Program-made: the position numbers and the translations under genes
The notes under the pieces: model-generated
Database searches by the model: none
What the model was told of the DNA's origin: nothing
The model's input: the letters and a program-made list of their open reading frames with translations, nothing else
Part shown: piece by piece, positions 1,069 through 59,247 of the stretch
How positions within the stretch are numbered: the stretch's first letter is position 1
How the letters are laid out: the number at the start of each line of letters is the position of its first letter
Origin: Eledone cirrhosa
Taxonomy: Eukaryota
Assembly (NCBI GenBank): GCA_964016885.1
Contig: OZ024743.1
Span: forward strand, 73,160,001 to 73,224,000
Reading direction: 5' to 3'
Length of the DNA: 64,000 nucleotides

Positions 1069-1262
1069 ATAATATATATAAATATTTATATATATTAGAA
1101 ATTGGAATAAATGCTCTGAAATAGCGATATATATGTGAATATAGACATAGAATATTCGAAAATATTCTGTATGTTTATAATAAACATTTTGAAGACCTAA
1201 TCGCTATAGAATAGAATACGTCACGTATTACAATTAGATTCTCGATAAAAGCAAGGGAAGTA

Positions 1263-1301
1263 AGTCTACGCGTTTCATTCTTGTTAGAATTCATCAGGAC
1301 T
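1263..1301 (-). ncRNA. Same hammerhead ribozyme, inverted copy (second inverted copy at 1574-1612)
   Basis: Exact reverse complement of the 1939-1977 motif. Confidence 0.88.
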
Positions 1302-1938
1302 ACATATCCAGTGCTTTTATCGAGAATGACACAGCTAGAGACTTATAGAATACTTAGCTGTGTACAGGAACTGGTTTGAAAGAGCGGTTGCCGGTCCGGC
1401 AGAAATTAGAAATTGGAATAAATGCTCTGAAATAGCGATATATATGTGAATATAGACATAGAATATTCGAAAATATTCTGTATGTTTATAATAAACATTT
1501 TGAAGACCTAATCGCTATAGAATAGAATACGTCACGTATTACAATTAGATTCTCGATAAAAGCAAGGGAAGTAAGTCTACGCGTTTCATTCTTGTTAGAA
1601 TTCATCAGGACTACATATCCAGTGCTTTTATCGAGAATGACACAGCTAGAGACTTATAGAATACTTAGCTGTGTACAGGAACATCGAGAATCTAATTGTA
1701 ATACGTGACGTATTCTATTCTATAGCGATTAGGTCTTCAAAATGTTTATTATAAACATACAGAATATTTTCGAATATTCTATGTCTATATTCACATATAT
1801 ATCGCTATTTCAGAGCATTTATTCCAATTTCTAATTTCTGCCGGACCGGCAACCGCTCTTTCAAACCAGTTCCTGTACACAGCTAAGTATTCTATAAGTC
1901 TCTAGCTGTGTCATTCTCGATAAAAGCACTGGATATGT

Positions 1939-1977
1939 AGTCCTGATGAATTCTAACAAGAATGAAACGCGTAGACT
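1939..1977 (+). ncRNA. Minimal type I hammerhead ribozyme (first of 9 plus-strand copies, cores at 1943+311n up to 4431)
   Basis: AGTC-CTGATGA-ATTCT-AACA-AGAAT-GAAAC-GC-GTA-GACT. Core intact, stem I AGTC/GACT, stem II ATTCT/AGAAT, palindromic stem III ACGCGT, GUA cleavage triplet. Confidence 0.9.
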
Positions 1978-4675
1978 TACTTCCCTTGCTTTTATCGAGA
2001 ATCTAATTGTAATACGTGACGTATTCTATTCTATAGCGATTAGGTCTTCAAAATGTTTATTATAAACATACAGAATATTTTCGAATATTCTATGTCTATA
2101 TTCACATATATATCGCTATTTCAGAGCATTTATTCCAATTTCTAATTTCTGCCGGACCGGCAACCGCTCTTTCAAACCAGTTCCTGTACACAGCTAAGTA
2201 TTCTATAAGTCTCTAGCTGTGTCATTCTCGATAAAAGCACTGGATATGTAGTCCTGATGAATTCTAACAAGAATGAAACGCGTAGACTTACTTCCCTTGC
2301 TTTTATCGAGAATCTAATTGTAATACGTGACGTATTCTATTCTATAGCGATTAGGTCTTCAAAATGTTTATTATAAACATACAGAATATTTTCGAATATT
2401 CTATGTCTATATTCACATATATATCGCTATTTCAGAGCATTTATTCCAATTTCTAATTTCTGCCGGACCGGCAACCGCTCTTTCAAACCAGTTCCTGTAC
2501 ACAGCTAAGTATTCTATAAGTCTCTAGCTGTGTCATTCTCGATAAAAGCACTGGATATGTAGTCCTGATGAATTCTAACAAGAATGAAACGCGTAGACTT
2601 ACTTCCCTTGCTTTTATCGAGAATCTAATTGTAATACGTGACGTATTCTATTCTATAGCGATTAGGTCTTCAAAATGTTTATTATAAACATACAGAATAT
2701 TTTCGAATATTCTATGTCTATATTCACATATATATCGCTATTTCAGAGCATTTATTCCAATTTCTAATTTCTGCCGGACCGGCAACCGCTCTTTCAAACC
2801 AGTTCCTGTACACAGCTAAGTATTCTATAAGTCTCTAGCTGTGTCATTCTCGATAAAAGCACTGGATATGTAGTCCTGATGAATTCTAACAAGAATGAAA
2901 CGCGTAGACTTACTTCCCTTGCTTTTATCGAGAATCTAATTGTAATACGTGACGTATTCTATTCTATAGCGATTAGGTCTTCAAAATGTTTATTATAAAC
3001 ATACAGAATATTTTCGAATATTCTATGTCTATATTCACATATATATCGCTATTTCAGAGCATTTATTCCAATTTCTAATTTCTGCCGGACCGGCAACCGC
3101 TCTTTCAAACCAGTTCCTGTACACAGCTAAGTATTCTATAAGTCTCTAGCTGTGTCATTCTCGATAAAAGCACTGGATATGTAGTCCTGATGAATTCTAA
3201 CAAGAATGAAACGCGTAGACTTACTTCCCTTGCTTTTATCGAGAATCTAATTGTAATACGTGACGTATTCTATTCTATAGCGATTAGGTCTTCAAAATGT
3301 TTATTATAAACATACAGAATATTTTCGAATATTCTATGTCTATATTCACATATATATCGCTATTTCAGAGCATTTATTCCAATTTCTAATTTCTGCCGGA
3401 CCGGCAACCGCTCTTTCAAACCAGTTCCTGTACACAGCTAAGTATTCTATAAGTCTCTAGCTGTGTCATTCTCGATAAAAGCACTGGATATGTAGTCCTG
3501 ATGAATTCTAACAAGAATGAAACGCGTAGACTTACTTCCCTTGCTTTTATCGAGAATCTAATTGTAATACGTGACGTATTCTATTCTATAGCGATTAGGT
3601 CTTCAAAATGTTTATTATAAACATACAGAATATTTTCGAATATTCTATGTCTATATTCACATATATATCGCTATTTCAGAGCATTTATTCCAATTTCTAA
3701 TTTCTGCCGGACCGGCAACCGCTCTTTCAAACCAGTTCCTGTACACAGCTAAGTATTCTATAAGTCTCTAGCTGTGTCATTCTCGATAAAAGCACTGGAT
3801 ATGTAGTCCTGATGAATTCTAACAAGAATGAAACGCGTAGACTTACTTCCCTTGCTTTTATCGAGAATCTAATTGTAATACGTGACGTATTCTATTCTAT
3901 AGCGATTAGGTCTTCAAAATGTTTATTATAAACATACAGAATATTTTCGAATATTCTATGTCTATATTCACATATATATCGCTATTTCAGAGCATTTATT
4001 CCAATTTCTAATTTCTGCCGGACCGGCAACCGCTCTTTCAAACCAGTTCCTGTACACAGCTAAGTATTCTATAAGTCTCTAGCTGTGTCATTCTCGATAA
4101 AAGCACTGGATATGTAGTCCTGATGAATTCTAACAAGAATGAAACGCGTAGACTTACTTCCCTTGCTTTTATCGAGAATCTAATTGTAATACGTGACGTA
4201 TTCTATTCTATAGCGATTAGGTCTTCAAAATGTTTATTATAAACATACAGAATATTTTCGAATATTCTATGTCTATATTCACATATATATCGCTATTTCA
4301 GAGCATTTATTCCAATTTCTAATTTCTGCCGGACCGGCAACCGCTCTTTCAAACCAGTTCCTGTACACAGCTAAGTATTCTATAAGTCTCTAGCTGTGTC
4401 ATTCTCGATAAAAGCACTGGATATGTAGTCCTGATGAATTCTAACAAGAATGAAACGCGTAGACTTACTTCCCTTGCTTTTATCGAGAATCTAATTGTAA
4501 TACGTGACGTATTCTATTCTATAGCGATTAGGTCTTCAAAATGTTTATTATAAACATACAGAATATTTTCGAATATTCTATGTCTATATTTATATATATA
4601 TAAAACCAAGGTCTAGTGAATAGAGAAAAAGTTTTAAAATAAATTTTTAAAAATTCGGTGTACTTACTATATGTG

Positions 4676-18593: not shown

Positions 18594-19650
18594 AATTTAT
18601 TTATTAGTCACAAGGGCACAAAAGAAGGGGACAAATACAAACGGGAGTTTACATACAAGTATATGAAAATAAAACTATTAATAAAATAACAAATAACAAT
18701 TGAAATCCCCAATAGGGGGGAGGCGTTACACCTGGGTTGTACACACCCCGAAAAAATGTACAACCCCATCTCCAGGAGCACCAAGAGTGAGTACTCCCTT
18801 CATTTCTTCCTCTTTTTCCTCAATCTACAGGCTTATATAGAGAGACGGCCCAACTACTCAGGCCATCTTTGCCACATTCACCCACCTTTTATAAAATATG
18901 CTAGGGTACAGCACCTCTCTCTCTATCCTGATTCTTCTTCCAAAATGATATTTGAAAAAATGAATCAGTTGCTCGCCGGAGAGAAAGGTGTGTGATCTCA
19001 GCCCTTTTAACCTAGTCCACCATATAACCTCTTTCACCATAGCCATATCACATAGGAAAACCGCCTCTCCCTCGTTTATTAAGAAGGGTGGCGGTTTGAT
19101 CATGACAATGGACTCGGTGGTCAACTGGATTGGTCCCACTCGCGATAATAGTCGTTCCACAGGTCGGTAATGCCCGGGCAGTGTACAAATGCGTGTACGA
19201 CGGTTTCCTCGTCGCGCACGCATCTCGGACAGATCTTTTTCGAAGGGTCCCTGCCCGGACGCCCGTGTCTGTAGAGCTTTTCTCGAACTGGTAGAGCTCC
19301 TCGGTAGCACTGCCAGATCAGGGACTTTTGGAAGTTGTCCATTGGACCCGGGCGGAAGGTCCTACCGAACATACTGGCCAGTTCGTCCTCCTCTACGCCT
19401 AGAGTTTCTCCGAGAGCGTCGTCGCACTTGCTGCGGATCAACCCTCTATAGAATGTCGAAGTGCAGTCTCCACCGATCGCCGGGTCCGTTTGCCAGAGGA
19501 CTGTGAGCGCCTGAGCACATTCGATGTGCCAGTCGCCCATTTTCCTCGGTCTTTGCTTGACCCAAGACTGCAGCTCGGTTAGCGGGATGTGTCGTAAGAA
19601 GGCTCGCCTCACGAACGGGGCCCACACCGGTTGTCCGGTGAGGAATACGT
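18594..19650 (-). mobile_element. 5'-truncated Tx1/L1-clade LINE inserted in (GATA)n
   Basis: ORF2 C-terminus with CCHC knuckle CPRCVRDEETVVHAFVHCP and KEVIWWTR...RIRIER. Frameshifted. (GATA)n on both sides. Confidence 0.8.
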
Positions 19651-19652
19651 GG

Positions 19653-19786
<134 letters not shown>

Positions 19787-20045
19787 ATAAAGTCAATATA
19801 GAAGTGATGTGTGTTAGATATTGATTATGGAAATTGTGTAAGAAAATTATTGTAATTAATTTATATGAATGTAAAATAAAATACGGCAAAATCCGTTGTG
19901 ACAAGAGGTGGCAGAATTCAAGGGAAGTTAATATTAAATTACACATTTTTTGGTAAACCTCGTCATTGCTGACGCGTACTATGCTAATATAAACCCACAC
20001 ACACACCACACACACACTCACACTCACACACACACATATGCATGC

Positions 20046-26752: not shown

Positions 26753-27420
26753 TCTTCTTCTTCTTCTTCTTCTTCTTCTTCTTCTTCTTCTTCTTCTTCT
26801 TCTTCTTCTTCTTCTTCTTCTTCTTCTTCTTCTTCTTCTTTGCCCACTTATTCCTGAGAAGGTAGTGGAAGCAAAGTCCTCAAAAATTCCACAAATTCCT
26901 GTCAGAAGCAAACGTCTCCAACTGATCCAGCTGGATCCCCAAGTGAGACTAGCCAAGCTTATTGATGTTACCAAACAACTTTGCTCAGAGTTTACCCATG
27001 GGTCTCCTGCCAGCTGATTTTTCTGTAAAATCTATCCAGCGATTCTTTCTTGCTACACTCTAACCAAAATTCCATAGTATCGGAGCTGTGATCTCAATTC
27101 GGAGTAGTAGCGGCTCTACCTGGAGTGACTTCCTGATCTCCGAGCTACACACTTTATCGAGTAGCCTTATTCCAAACACCCTTCGAAGGAACCCAATTTC
27201 GGCCGCTTGTATTCGCGATCGAATTCTTTTGATCATTACCCAACATTCATGTCCATAAGTAAGGGTTGCTACAAATACCGAATTAAAGACAGAGAGTTTG
27301 GCTTTTACGCCTACCTCCCTTCTTCTCATTACGGAATGCTGAAGCTGGCGAATTACTGCAGCAGCTCCAGGAATTCTTGCACTTAATTCAGCCTCCTGCC
27401 TTCCATCATTCGAGAACTTC
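26753..27420 (-). mobile_element. RTE-clade LINE 3' portion with (GAA)n tail
   Basis: KAKLSVFNSVFVATLTYGHECWVM..RIRSRIQAAEIGFLRR. (TTC)n on the plus strand. Confidence 0.85.
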
Positions 27421-27669
27421 TCTCCCTGCCTAATTATGTTACTAATTTCATTCTTGCATCTATAATTACAGAAGTAACATAAATTATATAGTCATTTGAT
27501 AATCTATATATTAATCCATATTCCTTTTGATAACTTAGTGACCTCTCATAAGAGATATCACCAACATATCTTTAAACAGAGAGGCCTTTCTCTGCGACTG
27601 CACATACACGAAATAGAATATAACATTTGCTTTGATATATTAATAAAATGACAGCTTCATGTGTTTCTT

Positions 27670-34860: not shown

Positions 34861-36127
34861 ATCATCATCATCATCATCATCATCATCGTTTAACGTCCAT
34901 ATTCCACGCTTGCATGGGTTTGGACGGGAGCTTTCCCACTTGAGGCAAGAATGGTTGTCTTGCTCGTATAGGACTGTCTGGCTGGTTTTCTACGGCTGGA
35001 TGCCCTTCCTAACACCAACCACATTTACAGTATGGAACTGGGAGGTTTTTACCGTGTTACCTACACGGCCACATTACAGCGTGGACTGTGTGTTTTTTTT
35101 TGTCGTGACACCTACACGACCTCATTTGTTTCGGGCTAGATGTTGTGGTACCAACATAACTTTACATTGAAAGTGGTAGTGTGGATGGGGTGGGGGTATG
35201 GGGACGGGGGTGTATTTTGTTAGAGGTGCCTACTGACTGTAGTAGGTTTCACTTTGTACTTAGGTAAGGCGGGTCTTCTCTAGTACTGTGTAGCGCCAAA
35301 GATCTCGGTCCAGTGACATTGTCTTGGAGAGGTGTAAGTGTGTGAGGTCGGAATTTATCAAGTCGTCCCAGGTTATTCTGGGTCTGCCTACTCCGTGGCT
35401 ACCGTCTATTTTTATTGCCCTGCACTTTATTATACAGCTGTCGTCTTTCATGCGCATCACGTGACCATACCAACGTAGTAAACAACATCTTCTCTCGAGT
35501 AAACAACATCTGATCCCTCTTATTTCTAATTTTTCCCTTAGTTCGTTTATGCTTTGCCGTTCACGTATATTACTATTACACATCCAGCGGAGAATGCAAG
35601 CTTCGTTCCTCTCCAGTCTGCGTATATCCTCTGCACACAATGCCCAGGTCTCACTGCCATGCAACATTGCTGTTCGTATGCAGGCATCATACAGCCTGCC
35701 TTTCATTTTTAGGGAGAACCCTTTAGCGGCTAATAGATCTCTGAACTTTTTCCATCCAGTTCTGACTCTAGCTACTGTACATTCAGAGCACCCTCCCCCA
35801 CTGCTGATTTTGTCACCCAGGTAACGGAAGATGTCCACTATCTCTATAGAACCATCTTTGCAATGGAATGAGCTAGTATTCTTGGGCACTTGCTGCTACG
35901 TATTACAGCAGAACACCGGCCACATATAAAATATATGTTCTTAGTTAGCTTACCTGTGATACCACTACATCTTTTATGCACCCATACTTTTCATTTGGGA
36001 CATAAAATGGAGTTTCTACCTACTCCTTTCCTACACACTGAGCATGACCATTTCCCGGATGGGACCGGCGCCCTATTTTCCTTCCTACAAACTAGAACTT
36101 TAGTCTTAGACAGGTTAATTTTAAGGC

Positions 36128-36187: not shown

Positions 36188-38785
36188 TAACAAATTAAAG
36201 TTTAAGCAAGGAATCTCTGCTTTCACCCTCAACGGGATCTTCTGAAACTAAAAAAGTCAATCTGTGAACGCAGAAGTAAATATTTCGAAAAACGTTGCAA
36301 CCGAAGGAAGACAGGAAGACGATACTTTGGTTCGTGGAAACGTTCCCTGGCAAAGAAGGGGAAAAAAACGAAGATAATACGTCGTTATTATTTGGAGCAG
36401 TGAAAACAATTACGCGCAAAGACAAAACCACGTTTATGGTATAAATGAAGTCGTAGAGCAATATTCTATGAGGTTGTTCGTGGAGACGTTCTCTGGCAAT
36501 GAACGGAAAAAACGAAGATAATACGTCATTATGTGGACGTGAGAACAATTACACGCAAGGACAAAACCATGTTTATGGTATAACTGAAGTCGTAGACTAA
36601 AATTCTATTTATGAATCCGAATGATTCTCGGCTTCAGAATTAAGAATAATTGTTTCTACTTTTGGCACAAGGCCAGTAATTACCCAGTATATTACTGGTA
36701 CTTTATTTTATCGACCCCGTAAAGGAATCCGAATGATTCTCGGCTTCAGAGTTAAGAATAATGTAAATAAATTACAGAGGTTATTGAAATCAACAAAAAT
36801 TAAATATATACATGCACGCATCCATATAAGTACATACAGATGCATACGCGAAAACACCCGCCATGGGTATGCAAATAGAAGCACGTACACAAAAATCACT
36901 CACGCGCATACAGAACCCACGTAACGCCTGTACCCGCACACATACGAACGTATAGACCAAATACACAAAAATATATATACAAAAAAATATATATATATGT
37001 GTGTGTATCTGTGTGTGTGTGTGTGTGCGTGTATACATATAATTATATAAACGTATATAAATATACACACATAAATGCATATATAACGCGGGCACACATA
37101 TACCTACATGCAAATACACATATGTTCGTTAAACGTACGTCAACCAAAACACAGAGTACACATATACACACACTCTACATACGTAAGAACCCGCATACTC
37201 ATACAGACACAAAACTCACGTATACACATAACCATATGCACATGTACCAGTATATATAATATAATATATACCCCTATAACAAATACAAGCAAATATACGT
37301 ACGAGAAAGTATACGTACCTTCATAAAACATACAGGTAATATATACTTACCTATACAAATAAGTAATGGTATAAACATAACATATACTTAGCTACCACAT
37401 CAAGACGTAAAATATCCACGTATAGTTCGTACTATCTGTTAGGGTATAATGTGGGGCTGTAATACAAGAAATGTTTGTGCAATTTATGTTTACAAGCCGA
37501 AATTGCCTCAGATTTTTTGTTTAAGATGTGGTCGTTGGCGTAGAATATTTCCAGGGCTTCAGCGGCGAAGAGGTCACATGGTCTTTTATTTCCGTTATAC
37601 GATCTAGCCCTAGCTAGGATCGCCCAGTGTAACTTATATTGGGTGTGGTTGTCTTTTAGACTCCAGATATAAACTGAAAGTGACGTCATATTCCTTCTTA
37701 AAGGGTTAAGAAAAGGATGCGTATGCATGTAAAGACGCTGCTTGAATCTATTGGCGGTTAACCATATGTAGGCCCTACGGGACGTGGGTGTTTCAACCTT
37801 ACATTTGTAGACAATGTTACTAGAGAGGCATTTGTCGGATAGGGGCAGTAAACCCGATTCCTACAATTACAGTTAGTACTAGCTACAGGGTTGCACGTGT
37901 TCCTTCGGCTAGGTAATTTAGCTAAATTTGAAGCTGTAATGTTATGTGAAAGGTTAGGAGTCGTAGAGTAAGACATTTTAATGGTATTTCTATTAAAAAT
38001 GTTACTATATGTATGTGCTGTTGGGAAATGCTTCATAATAAGGGAGGGAAAGATCTTAGCTAAAGGTGTGGCCACCTCCATATTATATGGTGGGTTATAC
38101 CATATAATGCGTCGGGATCTATTTTTCCTACGTGTATTCTCATACTCTGTATATGCTATCTTATCGACAAATCCACTCCGAGCAAGCGCTTCATGGTAAT
38201 ATGTGGAATGGTCGGTGAAAATATATGCTCGCTTGTAGATAGACGGGAAAGCCTCAAAGAAACGTTTCTCTGAGGCTTTCCCGTCTATCCTACCAGGTTC
38301 TTGGTTATGCTGGCAGAATGTTTAGAATGCTTACTTATGTAATTAAGCGTATCATTCGGCTTTCTATACGGGTAGTGCAGGCCATTCGACAAATTGAGGG
38401 TAAGGTCGAGGTAATTAACGACCGAGAGGTTGGCATCAACCTGTATGAAGATTTGAATCCATTAAAGAAGGCTGTGAGTTCTTTTCTGAACCTGTCGCAA
38501 GCACGTGGGCCGCACTTTGTCATGGTCAAAAGACCGTCATCACGGTGCCAACCATCGCCCACCTTGGGGAATTCTTCCTTGATAGACAAAAGAAGGAAAA
38601 GGCCGATAAGATCAGTCACCTCTGCAGAATCGCTGGCGCCCATACTCACGTCGAATGGGGTACTATTAGATATTTTTAATCCAAATAGAGAGAGTCGTCG
38701 AAATTAATCACTGACTTACGGTGCTTATATATTTATCCTTATCGAGCCCTCTTTGGACTTTAGTCTTCAAATTTATTATTATTAC
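36181..38785 (-). mobile_element. Decayed Penelope-like element (RT + GIY-YIG; Naiad-like by inference)
   Basis: RT motifs MGASDSAEVTDLIGL and HRDDGL; WYNPPY; CNCRNRVYCP; IVYKCKV..AYIWLT..FKQR; LSVYIWSLKD; CDL..E; LNKKSE..SACKH. Frameshifted. (TA)n flanks. Degenerate HHR at 36211-36248. Confidence 0.85.
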
Positions 38786-39144
38786 TATATATATATATAT
38801 ATATATATATACGGCACCTAATACATGAAGGAATTCACTGTAGGAGACTAGCCCTTACCTTTATAGTCATACTTCATCTAAAACCTATTTAATGTAATCT
38901 GACTTCGGCTCATGGTTTAAATATTGCCTTACAATAGTTACTGTTAAACCATTATTCCATCAACCTTGTAAACATTAGACTAAGGAAAACTATAAAAATA
39001 CACAATTGTTATATGTCGGCAGGGAATCACTGATTTATTTGAGATGAAAATGTCTACAGGAATGTATTCCTTGAGGAATTGCTGTCTATAAAAAGAACAC
39101 GCTGCATCTTTGCTAACTTTAAAAACAACGCACTTCTATGGTTA

Positions 39145-40235
39145 ATGTGTTGTTGTTGTCGTTGTTGATATTTTTCTTGTTGTTATTGCTGGTGCTGGTG
39201 CTGGTATTGGTGGTTGTGGTGGTGCTGGTGATGGGGGTTGTTATTGGTGGTGCTGTTGGTGCTGCAGGTGGTGCAGGTGGTGCTGGTATTGGTGGTGCTG
39301 GTATTGGTGGTGCTGGTGATGGTGTGCTGCTGCTGCTGGTGATGGTGGTGCTGGAAGTGGTGGCAGTGGTGCTGGTGGGTGATGTGGTGCTGCTGTTGAT
39401 GTTGTTGTTATTGGTGATTGTGGTGGTGCTGGTCGTGGTGATGGTGTCATTGTTGATGTTGTTGTTAGAGGTGATCGTGGTAGTAGTAGTGAGGGTTTTG
39501 TTGGTGGTGGTTGTGGTGGTGGTGGTTATGGTGGTCATGGTGATGGTGCTAGTGGTATTGGTGGTGGTTGTGGTGCTGGTGGTGGTGGTGGTGATGGTAT
39601 CAATGTTGATGTTGTTAGTGGTCGTTGTGGCGGTAGTGATGGTTGCGTCGGTGGTGGTTGTAGTGATGATGGTGGTGGTAGTGGTGGTGGTGGTGATGGC
39701 GGTGTCACTGTTGATGTTGTTAGTGGTCGTTGTGGCGGTAGTGATGGTTGATTTGGTGGTGGTTGTAGTGATGATGATGGTGGTGGTGGTGGTGGTAGTG
39801 GTGGTGGTGGTGGTGTCACTGTTGATGTTGTTGTTAGTTGTTGCTGTGGTGGTGATATGGTGACGATGGTGGTGGCGATGCTAGTTGTGGAGTCTCTTGT
39901 GGTATTTTTTTTGGCGGTGCAGTTGTTTTTATTGGTGGTGTTAGTGACGATGTTGTTGTTGGTGGTGTTGCTGGTGTTGTTTTAGTTGTTGGTGGTGGTG
40001 GTGATGGTGATGGTAGTGGTGTTGCTGCTGAGGTTGCTGGTGGTTATGGTGGTGATGGTAGTGATGTTTCTGTTGTTGTTTTAGTTTTTAGTGATGGTGA
40101 TGGTGATGGTGGTGGTGTTGTTTATGTTGGAGGTCGTGGTGGTGGTGATGGTGCTGCTTCTGGTGTTGATGTTGTCGTTGCTGTTAGTGGTGGCTTTTCT
40201 GTTGTTGTTGTGGTGGTGCTGGTGATGGTGTTGGT
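39145..40235. repeat. Degenerate (GGT/GTT/GAT)n trinucleotide low-complexity tract
   Basis: Visible triplet composition with an internal duplication of about 100 bp near 39600-39800. Confidence 0.9.
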
Positions 40236-40274
40236 GTGTGTGTGTGTGCGTCTGTCTATGTGTATGTGTATACG

Positions 40275-40308
<34 letters not shown>

Positions 40309-41387: not shown

Positions 41388-44180
41388 CCTGTTTGATAGT
41401 CGCTCAGCAGTATCGCAGGGAATCCATGGATGAAAAACTGCATGCTTATCAGCAAAAAATCATGCATGTTGCCAAGAAGCTCTAGACTGAGAGTAATATA
41501 GATAAGGAAAGCAGTCTATCGTGGACCAACAACCGCTATATTGGCTCCCACTTTGAAGGATACGCTTTTGCAATCCAACAACAGGAAATTAACACTAAAT
41601 ACCTGATTCACAAAAGAGATAGGGATGCATGCAAAACACCTAGATTTGATAACAAGTGCAGAGTCTGTAGAATTAACATCGAAGATGTCATCCATGTCAT
41701 CAACAGCTGTCCAAAGATGTCATTGCGGAACTATCTACCTATGAGGCATGATGTAGTGGCCAAAACACTGTACAATGCAATCCGTAGAAAACATAGCCCC
41801 GATAATGATAGCACAGTATAACATATTTTTGTTCCCTGGTTCTATGTCTCATTTCCTGGTTTGTTATATCCCATTATTACAAAGAAAACACTATTATTTA
41901 ATCCGAAGTTTGGGTTTGGGGTCAGGAGAGTATATATTTATTTTATTACACAAGCTTATCAAAAGCAAACAAGTAAAAACAAATAACACTTATAAAGCAA
42001 TTTATACACGTCAGAAATGACTGGATTTCCTGGATTTGCAGTTGTAGTCCAGGTCGCATTCCCGCACTAGCCCCCAGATATAGTCTTCCATCATTTTTTC
42101 ATTGTAGTGGCCCTGGTACCTCCACTCTATCTCTTTCATATCTTGGTGGAATCGTTCGCCCTGTTCTTCTGAGTAGGCGCCCATATCCTTGAATTTTTCC
42201 AAGTGAGCGTTCAGCATATGGAGTTTAAGCGACATCCTGCATCCCATGGCGGCAAAAGCCTTTATCAGATCCTGCACCAGTTGCTGGTAGTTTTCAGCTC
42301 TGTAGTTGCCCAGGAAGCCCTTAACAACTGCCGTGAAACAGTTCCATGCTTGCCTCTCAATCCTATTGAGCTTATTGGAGAACTCGGTAGACTCAAACAC
42401 CTTCTTTATCTGAGGTCCAACAAAAATTCCACCTTTGATTTTGGCCTCAGATAACTTGGGGAAGAACTCAAGAAGGTACTTAAAAGCGGCTGATTCTTGG
42501 TTGAGAGCCTCCACAAACTGCTTCATCAACCCTAACTTAATGTGCAGTGGCGGCATGAGCACAATCCTGTGATCAACCCGTGGTTCCCACATCACGTTTC
42601 GGGTCCCAACTACAAATTCTGTTCACTGCTCCCAGTTCTTTCTTTTGTAGTGGTCAGAGGTGGCTCTGCTGTCACAAAGGCAGAGGAAGCATTGGAATTT
42701 GATAAAGCCACCTTGGAGTCCAAGCAGGAAAGCCACCATCTTGAAGTCTCCAAAGATTTCTCAATTGTACTGGTTGTATTGCAGAGCTACCAAGAGGACT
42801 TTCACACTGTAGTAATATTCCTTTAGGCAGATTGAATGAGCTAGTGGTATGTCGGGAACTTGTTTCCATTGTGGAGGAGGAAAGCCTTCAAACTTGTGGT
42901 GGAGGTGTCTATAAATAGCCGCCACTCCTTGGGCACAAACGGCACCCCAATAACGTCAAACAGTCCAGGCATGTCATGGCAGAAGCAGAGGCCATCCCTA
43001 ACAGTGTAAAAGCCTGAGAAAGGTTCGTGTCGACTTCTCTGACTTGTCACCTGCACTTCCTCCTTGACCAAGTTCCACTGCTTCATCCTAGAGACGAATA
43101 GCTCTGCATTGGACCTTGTCAGACCCATATCCCTGACCAAGTCATTGACTTCTTTTTGGTTTGGGAAGTGAGGAACTTTTTCTGGTACCCCAGTATCAAT
43201 AAATCACTTTAATCCACTTTTTAACAATTTTATACTCTATTGCACTTTTATAATTTTCTTTAGGTATTACTCTTTATTTTATAATTTTAATTTAACCTGA
43301 AACATATAGAAACAATCATTTAACATAAGCAAATTAAATTACATACAACGTAAAATCCAGCATACAAATACTTCTAGTGAATAGCTTAGAATTTTTACAA
43401 ACCCAATTTTTTAACTGTTTAATAGCACTTTTTTTTATTTATTTGGGACCTAAGCAACACAAAAAAAGTGATTACAAGCCAGGAACAGAGAAAAAAATGT
43501 TTTTGTTACACGGTGTAATAAACTCATTAAAAGCTACAGCAATGTGGAAGATATCCATATACATAATATAAAAGTGTACTGCTGGAATGTTCCAGTAAAA
43601 GCCCCAATAAAATGCAGGCATAGCAGACCAGATGTTAAAGAAAGTATGCACAGTAGTGGAAGTTAGCTGCTCAGCAGATGCCAATGTAATATCAAAGATT
43701 AGCGAAAAAGAGAATATTTATGAAGAACTAATGAGAAATCTGCAGATACTCAACCCTGTTTACATCTTCAGATTTATGCCTGTGATTATTGTGTCACTGG
43801 GGTATGTTAGTAACTGCCTCAATACAAATCTTGAGAAGTTGGGCTTCACGGGAACAGAAAGAGCACGACTAGTTAGGAAATTACAAGTACAATCCATTAA
43901 TGGAACAGTAAAAATATGTAAAACATTCCAAAGATTTTACATCTAATAACTGCATATACACATGTACAGATATAAAGCATATACACATGCACACATACAA
44001 CTCAAAACACGCATCCACACATACAATAACATCCATATCTACACATGCATGCATGCAGACATGCAGACATATCTACCTAGTTGATGTTGTGTAAATTCCA
44101 ATTAGAGGCTTGTGTCTATGTTAGAAACCGACTCTCTCTGTATTGGTAAACATTTGTGATATTATAAAACCAGAAGAACA
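41385..44180 (+). mobile_element. R4/Dong-like restriction-like-endonuclease LINE 3' end, interrupted by a DNA transposon
   Basis: FEGYAFAIQQQEINTK...CRVCRINIEDVIHVINSC...MRHDVVAK before 41811. Resumes after 43516 with WNVPVK...RPD...VEVSC...KENIY...PVIIVSLG. (TACA)n tail. Confidence 0.82.
41812..43515 (-). mobile_element. DNA transposon with decayed transposase (Chapaev3/CMC-like assignment tentative)
   Basis: PPLHIKLGLMKQFV...GIFVGPQI...MSLKLHML..H...SEEQGERFHQD..RYQG. Imperfect TIRs CACAGTATAACA / TGTTACACGGTG. Splits the LINE coding sequence. Confidence 0.72.
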
Positions 44181-56543: not shown

Positions 56544-58762
56544 AACAACTTACCCTGACCTCGGACAACATTTTGCGGAATTTAACCAGCGGCTATCGAG
56601 GGAATACGAACATCTATGAGGAGCGCCTCTCCCCCTCACCTGATGCACACACACACAGACACACACACCCTTTCTCTCTCTCTCTCTCTCGCAGCAAGAA
56701 CAACAAGTTCTTGGTAATCCATGGGAATGGTCAACAATTAGTCTGTGACAAAGTTCACATGAGAATTCAATAAACATAATCACTGCGCCAAGTGAAGAAC
56801 CTAACATTTAAAACTCATGATCTCTGTTTTAGAGAAAAAAACTGTGATGTCGCTTAGGTTATAGAGAAAGAAACACTTCTTTCTCTTTTTCATTGTACGA
56901 CGAAGAGCAACAAATGAGATCGTTAGATTTTTCATTTCTCCTGGCAACTGAACTCATCCAAATATTCTATAAAAGCGCAATAACCAAGTTTATTCATAAA
57001 TAGTTACGGAATAATGGCGACGAATTGGCACAGTTTTTAAACCGTCGGATTCGTTCCGTCTCTCTGCTTTCTGAGTTCACGTCCCGCCAAGGTCAACTTT
57101 ACTTTTCATTCTTTCGAGATCGATAAAAGTGTACCAGTCTAGTACTGGGGTCGATTCTTCCCTCTTTATAACTCTCACACTTCCATTAAAGTTCCAGTCT
57201 AGTACTGGGGTCGATTATTCCTCTATAGTTATTTCTTAATCCATTTTCTCACTCTCACTATCCTTCTCTGGAAGAAATCTGCGGTATTCAGACCTGGAGA
57301 GGATTGAGCTCCGCCAGGTTTTAAAATACCCAAGCGACGGCGTATGTCAATACGGCACCACTACGGCTTCTTCGGGAGTTACAGGACCATGCCATGGCAG
57401 GTACAAAAGACGGGTACAGTTTAATACTTGTCTCAGTTAAGTTCGCTGCTGATTTATCATGTTACAATGCTTTCAATTCAATCTAACCATGATGACTGAA
57501 AAAATTAGGGCAACTCATATATCTGTTAAAGGAAAATTGGATATGTATCAATTGTTTCTTCTCGTGGAACCTTGAATCATTCCCAGATCTTCACTGATAC
57601 GGGTGGCCAGTATACCCACATAGCTGGGCCCTACTAATTTACTATAAACATTTTCAAACGACTCATCTTTCCAAAAATCTATACCAACCAAACCCCTTAT
57701 ATTTGTCACTCGATCTACCTAATAGAAAGATAAACAAAAGAAAAGCAAATAATACAGTGAACGATATACGCTAAACGTGTCTTTAGAGCATTTCATTTCT
57801 CTGCTTAACATCTGTTACAATGAATCACGAACCAGATGTTGTGTCGTTGCTCTTATCAAATACCTCATATCTAGAATTGTCCAATTGGGAGCCCACACTG
57901 AAATTAGATCCGTTGACATTTATTATTGTATTGTGTTTATTTTTTATATTATTTCTTATTGAACCAACAAGCTGCGGCCAGTCCTATTTAGTGTTCGATT
58001 ATCCTGTTACAGTTGCCTACCATTGCACACAATATGTCAATGGGTCCTATAATATTCTCTATTATTACAATGAACCTAGGTGTTATTGAATAAACTTTAT
58101 ATTTCCCGAACACTGATAAATAATACATCGTGTGTGTAATGTACGTGTGTATATGTGTGTGTGTTTGAGTATGTATATGTGTGTATGCGTATGTATATGT
58201 GCTTGTGTGTGTGAATGTGCATGTATATTTGCGTGTGTGTGTGTATGTGTGTGGGGGTTTGTGTGTATATGCGTGTGTATATGTGTGTGTGTTTGTAAGT
58301 GTGTGTATATGTGTGTATGTGTGTATGTAAGTGTGTATGTGAATGTATGTGTGTGTATGTGTATGTATATGTGCTTGTGCGTGTGTATATGTGTGTGTAT
58401 GTGTATGTATATTTGAGTGTGTGTGTTTATGTGCGTATATGTGTGTGTTTGTCTGTGTATGCTTGTGTGTTTGTATGTGTGTGTGTGTGTGTTTATGTGT
58501 GTATGGGTGTATGTGTGGGTGTATATGTGTGTGAGTGTGTATGTATGTGTATGTATGTATGTGTGTATGTGTATGTGTATATGTGTGAGTGTGTATGTGT
58601 GAATGTGTATGTGTGTGTGTGTGTATAAGTATGTGTGTATGAGCGTGTGTGAGATTATATATATATATGTATGTGTGTGAATGAATGAATGTTCCTCCTT
58701 GGTTTCGACTGTACCCGTTTCTCGATCAAAGGAGCACCTTCCTCATAGAATTATTCCACAAA

Positions 58763-59247
58763 CACCTTTCCCCTTAATGTAATTCTCAGGGAGATTCAGC
58801 AAGACGGTGTGTGTAAGAAGGCTGGACCTTTCAATTGCAGGCACATTCCATCCGTTGGGCTGCCAAACAGTTTCATTCACAAGCACCTTTCCCCTTAATG
58901 TAATTCTCAGGGAGATTCAGCAAGACAGTGTGTGTAAGAAGGCTGGACCTTTCAATTGCAGGCACATTCCATCCGTTGGGCTGCCAAACAGTTTCATTCA
59001 CAAGCACCTTTCCCCTTAATGTAATTCTCAGGGAGATTCAGCAAGACAGTGTGTGTAAGAAGGCTGGACCTTTCAATTGCAGGCACATTCCATCCGTTGG
59101 GCTGCCAAACAGTTTCATTCACAAGCACCTTTCCCCTTAATGTAATTCTCAGGGAGATTCAGCAAGACAGTGTGTGTAAGAAGGCTGGACCTTTCAATTG
59201 CAGGCACATTCCATCGGTTGGGCTGCCAAACAATTTCATTCACAAGC
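58763..59247. repeat. Four 121-bp tandem copies derived from a SINE segment
   Basis: Period 121 (cacctttccc at 58763 and 58884). The unit resembles the reverse complement of 51333-51403. Confidence 0.9.

Follow-up and report, generated by a model that had tools for sequence, protein, structure and literature searches.

The window analysed here is the whole stretch of 64,000 nucleotides of Eledone cirrhosa DNA (contig OZ024743.1, positions 73,160,001 to 73,224,000). Near its left end lies a tandem array of a 311-nt unit of about 34% GC, arranged in two divergent arms. Unit position 1 was set at base 1974, the first base 3' of the predicted cut. The array and its borders are laid out as follows.

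1082..1095, plus strand: left copy of a 14-nt direct repeat in the window sequence, likely a target-site duplication; its last 2 nt also fit the element
1094..1682, minus strand: inverted arm of 1.89 units carrying 2 hammerheads, with its long, tailed outer end at unit position 173 and its inner end at 207
1094..1137, minus strand: Penelope-type tail of 44 nt (unit positions 130-173), at one end only, in agreement with the family-wide pattern
1682..1683, no strand: blunt head-to-head inner junction of both arms, read directly in the sequence
1683..4590, plus strand: direct arm of 9.35 units carrying 9 hammerheads, with its short outer end at unit position 129 and its inner end at 21
4586..4599, plus strand: right copy of the 14-nt direct repeat in the window sequence; its first 5 nt also fit the element

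The 31-nt core, composed of CUGAUGA, stem II, GAAA and CGCGUA, occurs nine times on the plus strand, with starts from 1943 to 4431 at a period of 311 nt, and twice on the minus strand, at 1267 and 1578. An earlier sequence-only reading had described 11 identical hammerhead motifs, nine plus and two minus, 311 nt apart, and this description was borne out: walking outward from the first core, no mismatch was met across either arm (1094-1682 and 1683-4590), and all copies are identical. TRF recovers both blocks. The proposed limits of 1095..4590 hold at the right edge, while the left edge lies one base further out, at 1094. The whole 3,497-bp locus contains no difference, which supports the recent insertion that had been suggested. 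No coding frame of at least 90 aa was found within the window array, as the sequence-only reading had also noted; an ATG frame of 39 codons begins in the hammerhead core. Neither a tRNA gene nor a tRNA origin of the unit was found. The window array contains no RT + GIY-YIG frame of its own, and no Penelope frame was found inside the mapped arrays described below. In a cross-locus control, the 14-nt length of the flanking repeat, with content other than (TA)n, was reached by 2 of 86 mismatched flank pairs. The window array is a recently inserted non-LTR retrozyme, a tandem repeat with hammerheads and no protein-coding content.

The features of the first plus-strand hammerhead and of the monomer that it would release are given below.

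1913..2002, plus strand: first plus-strand hammerhead domain, with core and stems read directly and by folding
1913-1928 with 1987-2002, plus strand: 16-bp extension of stem I, by folding
1937-1942 with 1974-1980, plus strand: stem I, 6 bp with one bulge, by folding
1943-1949 and 1964-1967, plus strand: hammerhead core, consensus CUGAUGA / GAAA
1950-1954 with 1959-1963, plus strand: stem II, 5 bp with loop AACA, by folding
1967..1972, plus strand: palindromic stem III ACGCGT, predicted to pair with that of a second hammerhead
1973..1974, plus strand: predicted self-cleavage site after GUA, every 311 nt, from the hammerhead consensus
1974..2284, plus strand: predicted 311-nt monomer or circle, from hammerhead spacing and the predicted cut

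The unit appears to carry a type I hammerhead, with the core CUGANGA / GAAA / NUH and open at stem I, and ribozyme activity is predicted from these elements. No Rfam model reached its gathering score over the window, the best being a weak match to Hammerhead_HH9 (17.8 bits, E 0.093, cut-off 52), and it is therefore the conserved core and the stems, as read in the sequence itself, that carry the hammerhead call. Folding of the 94-nt ribozyme domain gives z = -6.8, none of 200 shuffles being equally stable, and that of the circular monomer z = -4.7 against 100 shuffles; pair probabilities of stems I and II in the circle are 0.84-0.99. Stem I contains an internal loop, and loop II reads AACA. The monomer closes its weak stem III poorly. 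In a free co-fold of two domains (-70.5 kcal/mol vs 2 x -31.3), a 6-bp intermolecular ACGCGU/ACGCGU helix forms, in line with the dimer-type palindromic stem III read earlier from the letters; the GUA motif likewise ends at 1973, where the cut had been placed. A short palindromic helix III permitting a dimeric active fold is the design defined in the available text of PMC4209133, and stem III of the window together with the predicted double-hammerhead co-fold likewise conforms to it. In vitro, one of nine predicted frog retrozyme dimers was cleaved, according to the available part of 10.64898/2026.07.22.740005, which speaks against dimer cleavage.

Other loci of the family, for which a genome-wide search had been suggested, were located by exact sequence patterns. 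The exact window core gave 3,924 matches in the 3.0-Gb assembly and its reversed pattern none; an internal 30-mer gave 17,506 exact matches and its reversed control none. The family thus comprises at least 17,506 units, about 5.4 Mb or about 0.18% of the assembly, dispersed through the genome. The internal-word list holds 18 loci in the first 35.9 Mb of C1, and the long-end pattern matches 806 times on the forward strand. Extrapolation from these two figures gives ~1,500-2,000 loci; very young insertions of the 310-base repeat thus number roughly 1,500 or more, the window array among them. For the long-end pattern we used the forward count and the C1 list, the reverse count (3,266 vs 806) being inflated by overlapping matches; the short-end pattern also matches internal units of one variant. 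All sampled loci other than the window come from the start of C1, among the matches listed (first 100 places).

The commonest form across loci is 310 nt long and lacks the stem I bulge. Haplotypes were scored at 91 loci with at least two full units (531 units in all; 12 of 103 loci had fewer than two), after exclusion of a false unit spanning the inversion of L202. These 91 loci carry 35 haplotypes; 51 are fully uniform, 40 show unit-level variants of some kind, and within-locus substitutions amount to 0.039% per base. The window haplotype departs from the column majority at two positions and is common to three other sampled loci. Thirty-four variant types have reached fixation within a locus, being present in all of its units, and 18 of these are confined to a single locus. 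None of the 34 falls in the 12 core positions, though core conservation alone is not significant, since about one change would be expected in 12 of 311 sites; 12 of the 34 lie elsewhere in the hammerhead domain (N7, loop II, stem II base or stem I), and the stem I changes A277G, A2G and G278A keep the pairing. Two family haplotypes are mixed at each of L059, L060 and L225, and hence template switching or gene conversion does occur.

Comparison with the metazoan non-LTR retrozymes described in the available text of PMC7229834 (coral, mussel, axolotl; also newt satellite 2) revealed shared tandem, non-coding, low-GC units of 150-450 bp, each with one type I hammerhead and a short palindromic helix III. 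Those retrozymes are without LTR, PBS or PPT, and the window family is without a protein or an LTR-flanked internal region; target duplications exceed 4 bp there, and the 14-nt repeat is a likely duplication here. In the commonest haplotype the basal pair of helix II is U-U, as in axolotl HHR_Amex2. Target duplication apart, every feature of non-LTR retrozymes that could be tested was found in the window family, in support of the class assignment made by the sequence-only reading. The family is a new one of this known class, and it differs from those of PMC7229834 in sequence and in the head-to-head pairing of its arrays, whose ends are fixed and unequal; the main text of that paper does not use the word 'inverted'. 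Expression and circles have been demonstrated for the PMC7229834 retrozymes, whereas the window family is known here from genome sequence. In the literature covered, main texts outside subscription journals, a description of this family, or of retrozyme arrays that are inverted and tailed, was not found.

Both ends of the array were mapped at 56 loci, the window included. Arms are arranged head to head at 49 of them, six loci are single-armed and one lies at an assembly gap. At 48 of the 49 head-to-head loci one outer end is short (unit position 118-140, mode 131) and the other long (155-173, mode 166), with an offset of about 35 nt between them; the 49th, L197, is complex, and no locus is short-short or long-long. 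Twenty loci had been chosen for paired end patterns, and the remaining long-end matches were then added. The end-unbiased subset (the first 18 loci, from the internal-word list) contains 14 head-to-head loci (13 clear short + long, 1 complex), 3 single-armed loci and 1 at a gap. Among the long-end loci listed, 42 of 43 were covered, comprising 40 short + long, 1 single and 1 gap. The inverted block of the window is thus a rule of the family, and its two ends carry the Penelope tail signature, neither of which had been part of the sequence-only reading.

Inner ends are scattered around the unit (chi-square p 0.11); unit 15-40, the 3' strand of the long helix, contains more of them than expected (17 vs 7.4), and only 1 of 88 lies within 5 nt of the cleavage site. 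Inner junctions are mostly blunt or formed over 1-8 shared bases. Arms exceed one unit in 78 of 88 cases, on both sides of the inversion and with shared haplotypes, and the longest reaches ~27 units (L183 with L252). Targets are mostly (TA)n, a kind of site for which the end-pattern searches select; in the core list, (TA)n stands at both ends of 8 of the 10 head-to-head loci, and in the internal-word list at both ends of most loci. Flanking direct repeats are readable at the complex targets L037, L044, L199 and L202. Family-wide, target duplication was scored at 7 of 44 loci against a cross-pair background of 13%, and is not above that background.

This geometry, an inverted copy with a one-sided tail, usually in (TA)n, is the Penelope signature. 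According to the available texts of PMC8557442 and PMC3846280, Penelope insertions combine an inverted, 5'-truncated copy with a tail of 30-40 bp that is often confined to one end. The anole Penelope protein, once purified, cleaves both strands of AT-rich DNA and extends them, and reverse transcription begins at two internal sites that bound the tail (PMC11167929, available part); in vitro these start sites did not differ between strands, which speaks against the main reading given below. Endonuclease-positive Penelope-like elements, as these three sources describe them, share with the window family the inverted truncated copy, the one-sided tail of ~35 nt, the two internal start sites, AT or microsatellite targets and the hammerhead, which in their case sits in the terminal repeat. 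The window family differs in having no coding frame and in multiplying its unit up to ~27-fold per arm, and no homologous parent terminal repeat was found for it. The available text of PMC8557442 lists the origin of tandem and inverted Penelope structures as unresolved. Penelope elements have been proposed as partners of retrozymes without direct evidence (PMC7229834, PMC7761336, available parts), and frog retrozymes have been interpreted as non-autonomous Penelope derivatives from co-occurrence and terminal-repeat homology (10.64898/2026.07.22.740005, available part). We arrive at the same partner class; local amplification was suggested there, whereas the evidence here is insertion anatomy, which indicates that the arrays formed in the course of insertion. 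MRC1 and other non-autonomous Chlamys elements, as far as the available text of PMC8557442 describes them, similarly parasitise Penelope without coding capacity, and their insertions are multicopy and head to tail.

The genome holds 10,595 GIY-YIG candidates, one of them a 938-aa RT + GIY-YIG frame. A search of 50 GIY-YIG loci of these 10,595, and of 30 loci of family B and 37 of family C, revealed no autonomous element whose terminal repeat is homologous to the unit. Family C, which is autonomous, has repeated intact frames of 758-759 aa, 9,206 hammerhead matches and (TA)n targets, and nine of its ten paired loci show short + long ends. It is probably Penelope-like, as judged from weak Pfam matches and from its nearest Atlas clusters, in which part of the members carry HTH_animal, GIY-YIG or RVT_1. 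It is the best partner candidate, but its agreement with the unit, at 25 of 28 positions of the hammerhead core and stem II, does not exceed that of shuffled sequence (score 41, shuffled maximum 47-50), and its tail is about 68 nt vs about 35 in the retrozyme family. Family C is accordingly taken as a geometric control and not as a proven partner. Family B, older and retrozyme-like (2,841 motif matches, 66-75% identity), aligns over the whole unit; of 30 loci, 13 stop at the short site and 10 at the long site, 3 continue and 4 end otherwise. Because family B stops at both retrozyme end sites, the start sites are an old, conserved feature.

The template was considered next to these ends. The major haplotype is present in both arms at 28 of 29 loci, and 764 of 767 cleavage junctions match their locus. 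For a new variant to occupy all units of the two arms in a single step, a bottleneck of one unit is required. Near-uniform loci, 35 different haplotypes, arms of ~27 units and ends that ignore the cleavage site favour rolling-circle copying of one circular monomer, and so support the rolling-circle origin that had been suggested from the window. Our main reading, to which we assign a probability of about two in three, is that the array was written into an AT-rich site by a Penelope-like enzyme, rolling on one small circular RNA from both cut strands. At the same odds, its template was a covalent circle read repeatedly, which fits the bottleneck, junction, end and arm-length data. Contrary to such a template are the three mixed-haplotype loci, arm lengths that are not significantly correlated (rho 0.25, p 0.10), and the finding in the available part of PMC11167929 that hammerhead cleavage is dispensable for anole Penelope in vitro, unprocessed RNA being the main substrate. 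The term 'replicon', applied to the circle by the sequence-only reading, should be read as a retrotransposition intermediate and not as RNA-to-RNA replication.

The same preference of the anole enzyme for unprocessed RNA, the weakness of stem III as a monomer, and the existence of mosaic loci and of adjacent units with a common variant (L053, L054, L059), would be expected if Penelope machinery inserted a long linear multimer that was transcribed from a parent array and never cleaved, with uniformity arising from uniform parents and gene conversion. We regard this as unlikely: 18 private variants are fixed in every scored unit of loci that are 0.04% diverged internally, which calls for a one-unit bottleneck, and linear copying can only shorten arrays, yet one arm has ~27 units. 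A bottleneck without a covalent circle would be provided by a cleaved linear monomer on which the enzyme jumps from the 5' end to the 3' end. Such jumping accounts for the fixed private variants, and switching between templates is visible in the mosaic loci. End-to-end template jumps usually add or lose bases, as in R2 elements, whereas the 764 cleavage junctions noted above are identical within their locus, and inner ends are not piled at the cleavage site; we consider it improbable. Still less credible is that short insertions came first and then grew locally as satellites by unequal crossing-over. Local growth has been proposed in 10.64898/2026.07.22.740005 (available part) and L053 units seven apart have two changes in common, but the window locus has no difference along its length, multi-unit arms with shared haplotypes stand on both sides of the inversion, and the loci are dispersed. 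A seven-unit circle for L053 was also tried and was rejected, the third variant not recurring at that period. Fold-back chimeras do generate palindromes, but an assembly or chimeric-read artefact is hardly conceivable where the two outer ends, set within direct repeats, recur at distinct positions of the unit, the arms differ in length and are out of phase, other element families follow the same end rule and a closed 310-nt unit assembles in three independent runs.

With a circular template, the steps may be envisaged as follows. The array would be transcribed, and neighbouring hammerheads, paired via ACGCGU, would release monomers of 310/311 nt, to be closed into circles by a host ligase. A Penelope protein, probably as a dimer, would place staggered nicks in both strands of a (TA)n-like target, as its biochemistry and the ends seen suggest, and each nicked end would prime reverse transcription inside the RNA, at unit ~129-140 and ~166-173. 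Both enzymes would roll on the same circle, giving multi-unit cDNAs, whose two ends would be joined head to head at variable positions, mostly bluntly or over a few shared bases, and then filled in. Because the family is young, numerous and non-coding, each locus records one reaction, with two start sites, one per strand, and a shared template. The family provides a defined substrate of 310 nt whose start positions are known exactly, and intact candidate enzymes are encoded by the genome that contains it. It offers direct genomic evidence for Penelope-driven, probably circle-templated retrotransposition, a link long proposed for such repeats. More tentatively, and with the balance of our judgement somewhat against it, a Penelope dimer might hold a single RNA circle with its two reverse transcriptases ~35 nt apart, one per target strand, every insertion being the footprint of this twin rolling-circle priming. 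If true, this would account together for the Penelope tail, its one-sidedness and the head-to-head inversion, and would make the family the first record, on a genome scale, of retrotransposition from circular RNA in an animal.

The unit was found in 20 runs under 18 organism labels; no RNA data set stood among the runs listed, which is evidence neither for nor against expression. No raw read of one organism E run (X23, 12.8 million records) matched the unit, a zero that is informative only if the organism is shown to be in that run, while contigs of another organism E run contain it, and two runs from the same sample as the unit-containing X18 lack it. Horizontal transfer is therefore not claimed, cross-contamination from a high-copy repeat being the simpler reading.

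Among the fixed variants, A>G changes outnumber T>C by 10 to 3 (p 0.02; Fisher test vs within-locus variants, p 0.03), and the A>G variants have no clear 5' neighbour bias. The idea is post hoc, having come from counts of 7 vs 1 in the first 42 loci, and later loci added 3 vs 2. RNA editing behind this excess is a weak lead; if twin priming on a circle were true, A-to-G changes in RNA would possibly have been written back into DNA.

A family related to the hammerhead-bearing retrozyme of the window array (B) was present in the same genome, as were a Penelope-like family (C) and several further Penelope-like families. These, and further features within the window itself, are as follows (L numbers denote loci sampled from the same assembly; other coordinates are window positions).

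L143-L179, L203:1805-4081, L204:1721-3994: family C, canonical hammerhead, 9,206 matches
L093:3309-6122, L094, L098, L101; L095; L096/L097: several further Penelope-like families, long RT and GIY-YIG frames
L113-L142, L064:2433-2864: family B, unit of about 315 nt, 2,841 motif matches
37432-38703, minus strand: broken Penelope-like element, protein 45-50% identical to family C
35260-35895, 27060-27491, 19121-19792, 42011-43203, all minus strand: fragments from a frame scan
39119-40302; 58757-59247: repeat frames rich in Thr or in Val/Gly, plus a tandem array with a 121-bp unit (4.1 copies, 98%)
1946-2065, plus strand: 39-codon ATG frame starting within the hammerhead core

Family C frames were intact, 758-759 aa long and recurred across copies, and the insertions lay head-to-head and carried a tail about 68 nt long. 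Stem II of this family was similar to that of the commonest retrozyme haplotype. The sequences suggest that family C is a young autonomous Penelope-like family. The L093 group is likewise young, since its protein identity was 96-98%. Family B is an older family related to the retrozyme: its stems II and III were unlike those of the retrozyme family and many of its cores had decayed, its insertions were mostly short, and both end sites were the same as those of the retrozyme family. The four minus-strand fragments resemble LINE reverse-transcriptase tails and one transposase-like frame.

Within the array, a 10-nt word at 2200-2209 (unit 227-236), which we take to resemble a TATA motif, lay about 45 nt upstream of the hammerhead core and did not differ between the unit of the window array and two copies from family B; it is a candidate internal promoter. 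Over about 590 bp (1094-2271) the two arms were perfect inverted copies of each other; read-through would yield long double-stranded RNA, and the DNA could form a cruciform. The 39-codon frame may be compared with that of the anole Penelope, which likewise begins at stem II (PMC11167929).

A closed 310-nt unit was also assembled from sequencing runs bearing 18 organism labels; the runs compared included X1, X3, X7, X18 and X21-X23. Raw reads of organism E, one such label, gave no match to the unit, a zero that is informative only if the organism is shown to be in the run, and the unit was missing from sister runs of one run that contained it. Its occurrence under 18 labels probably reflects cross-contamination; horizontal transfer is a less likely source, which we do not claim.

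Among fixed variants, present in every unit of a locus, A>G outnumbered T>C family-wide (10 versus 3), whereas within-locus variants leaned the opposite way (12 T>C, 6 A>G). This pattern is a possible signature of RNA editing or enzyme error, and the lean was weak in the loci added later. Mosaic arrays were found at L053, L059, L060 and L225: the last three loci each carried two family haplotypes, and at L053 two units 7 apart had two changes in common. Such arrays may have arisen by template switching or by later conversion or duplication.
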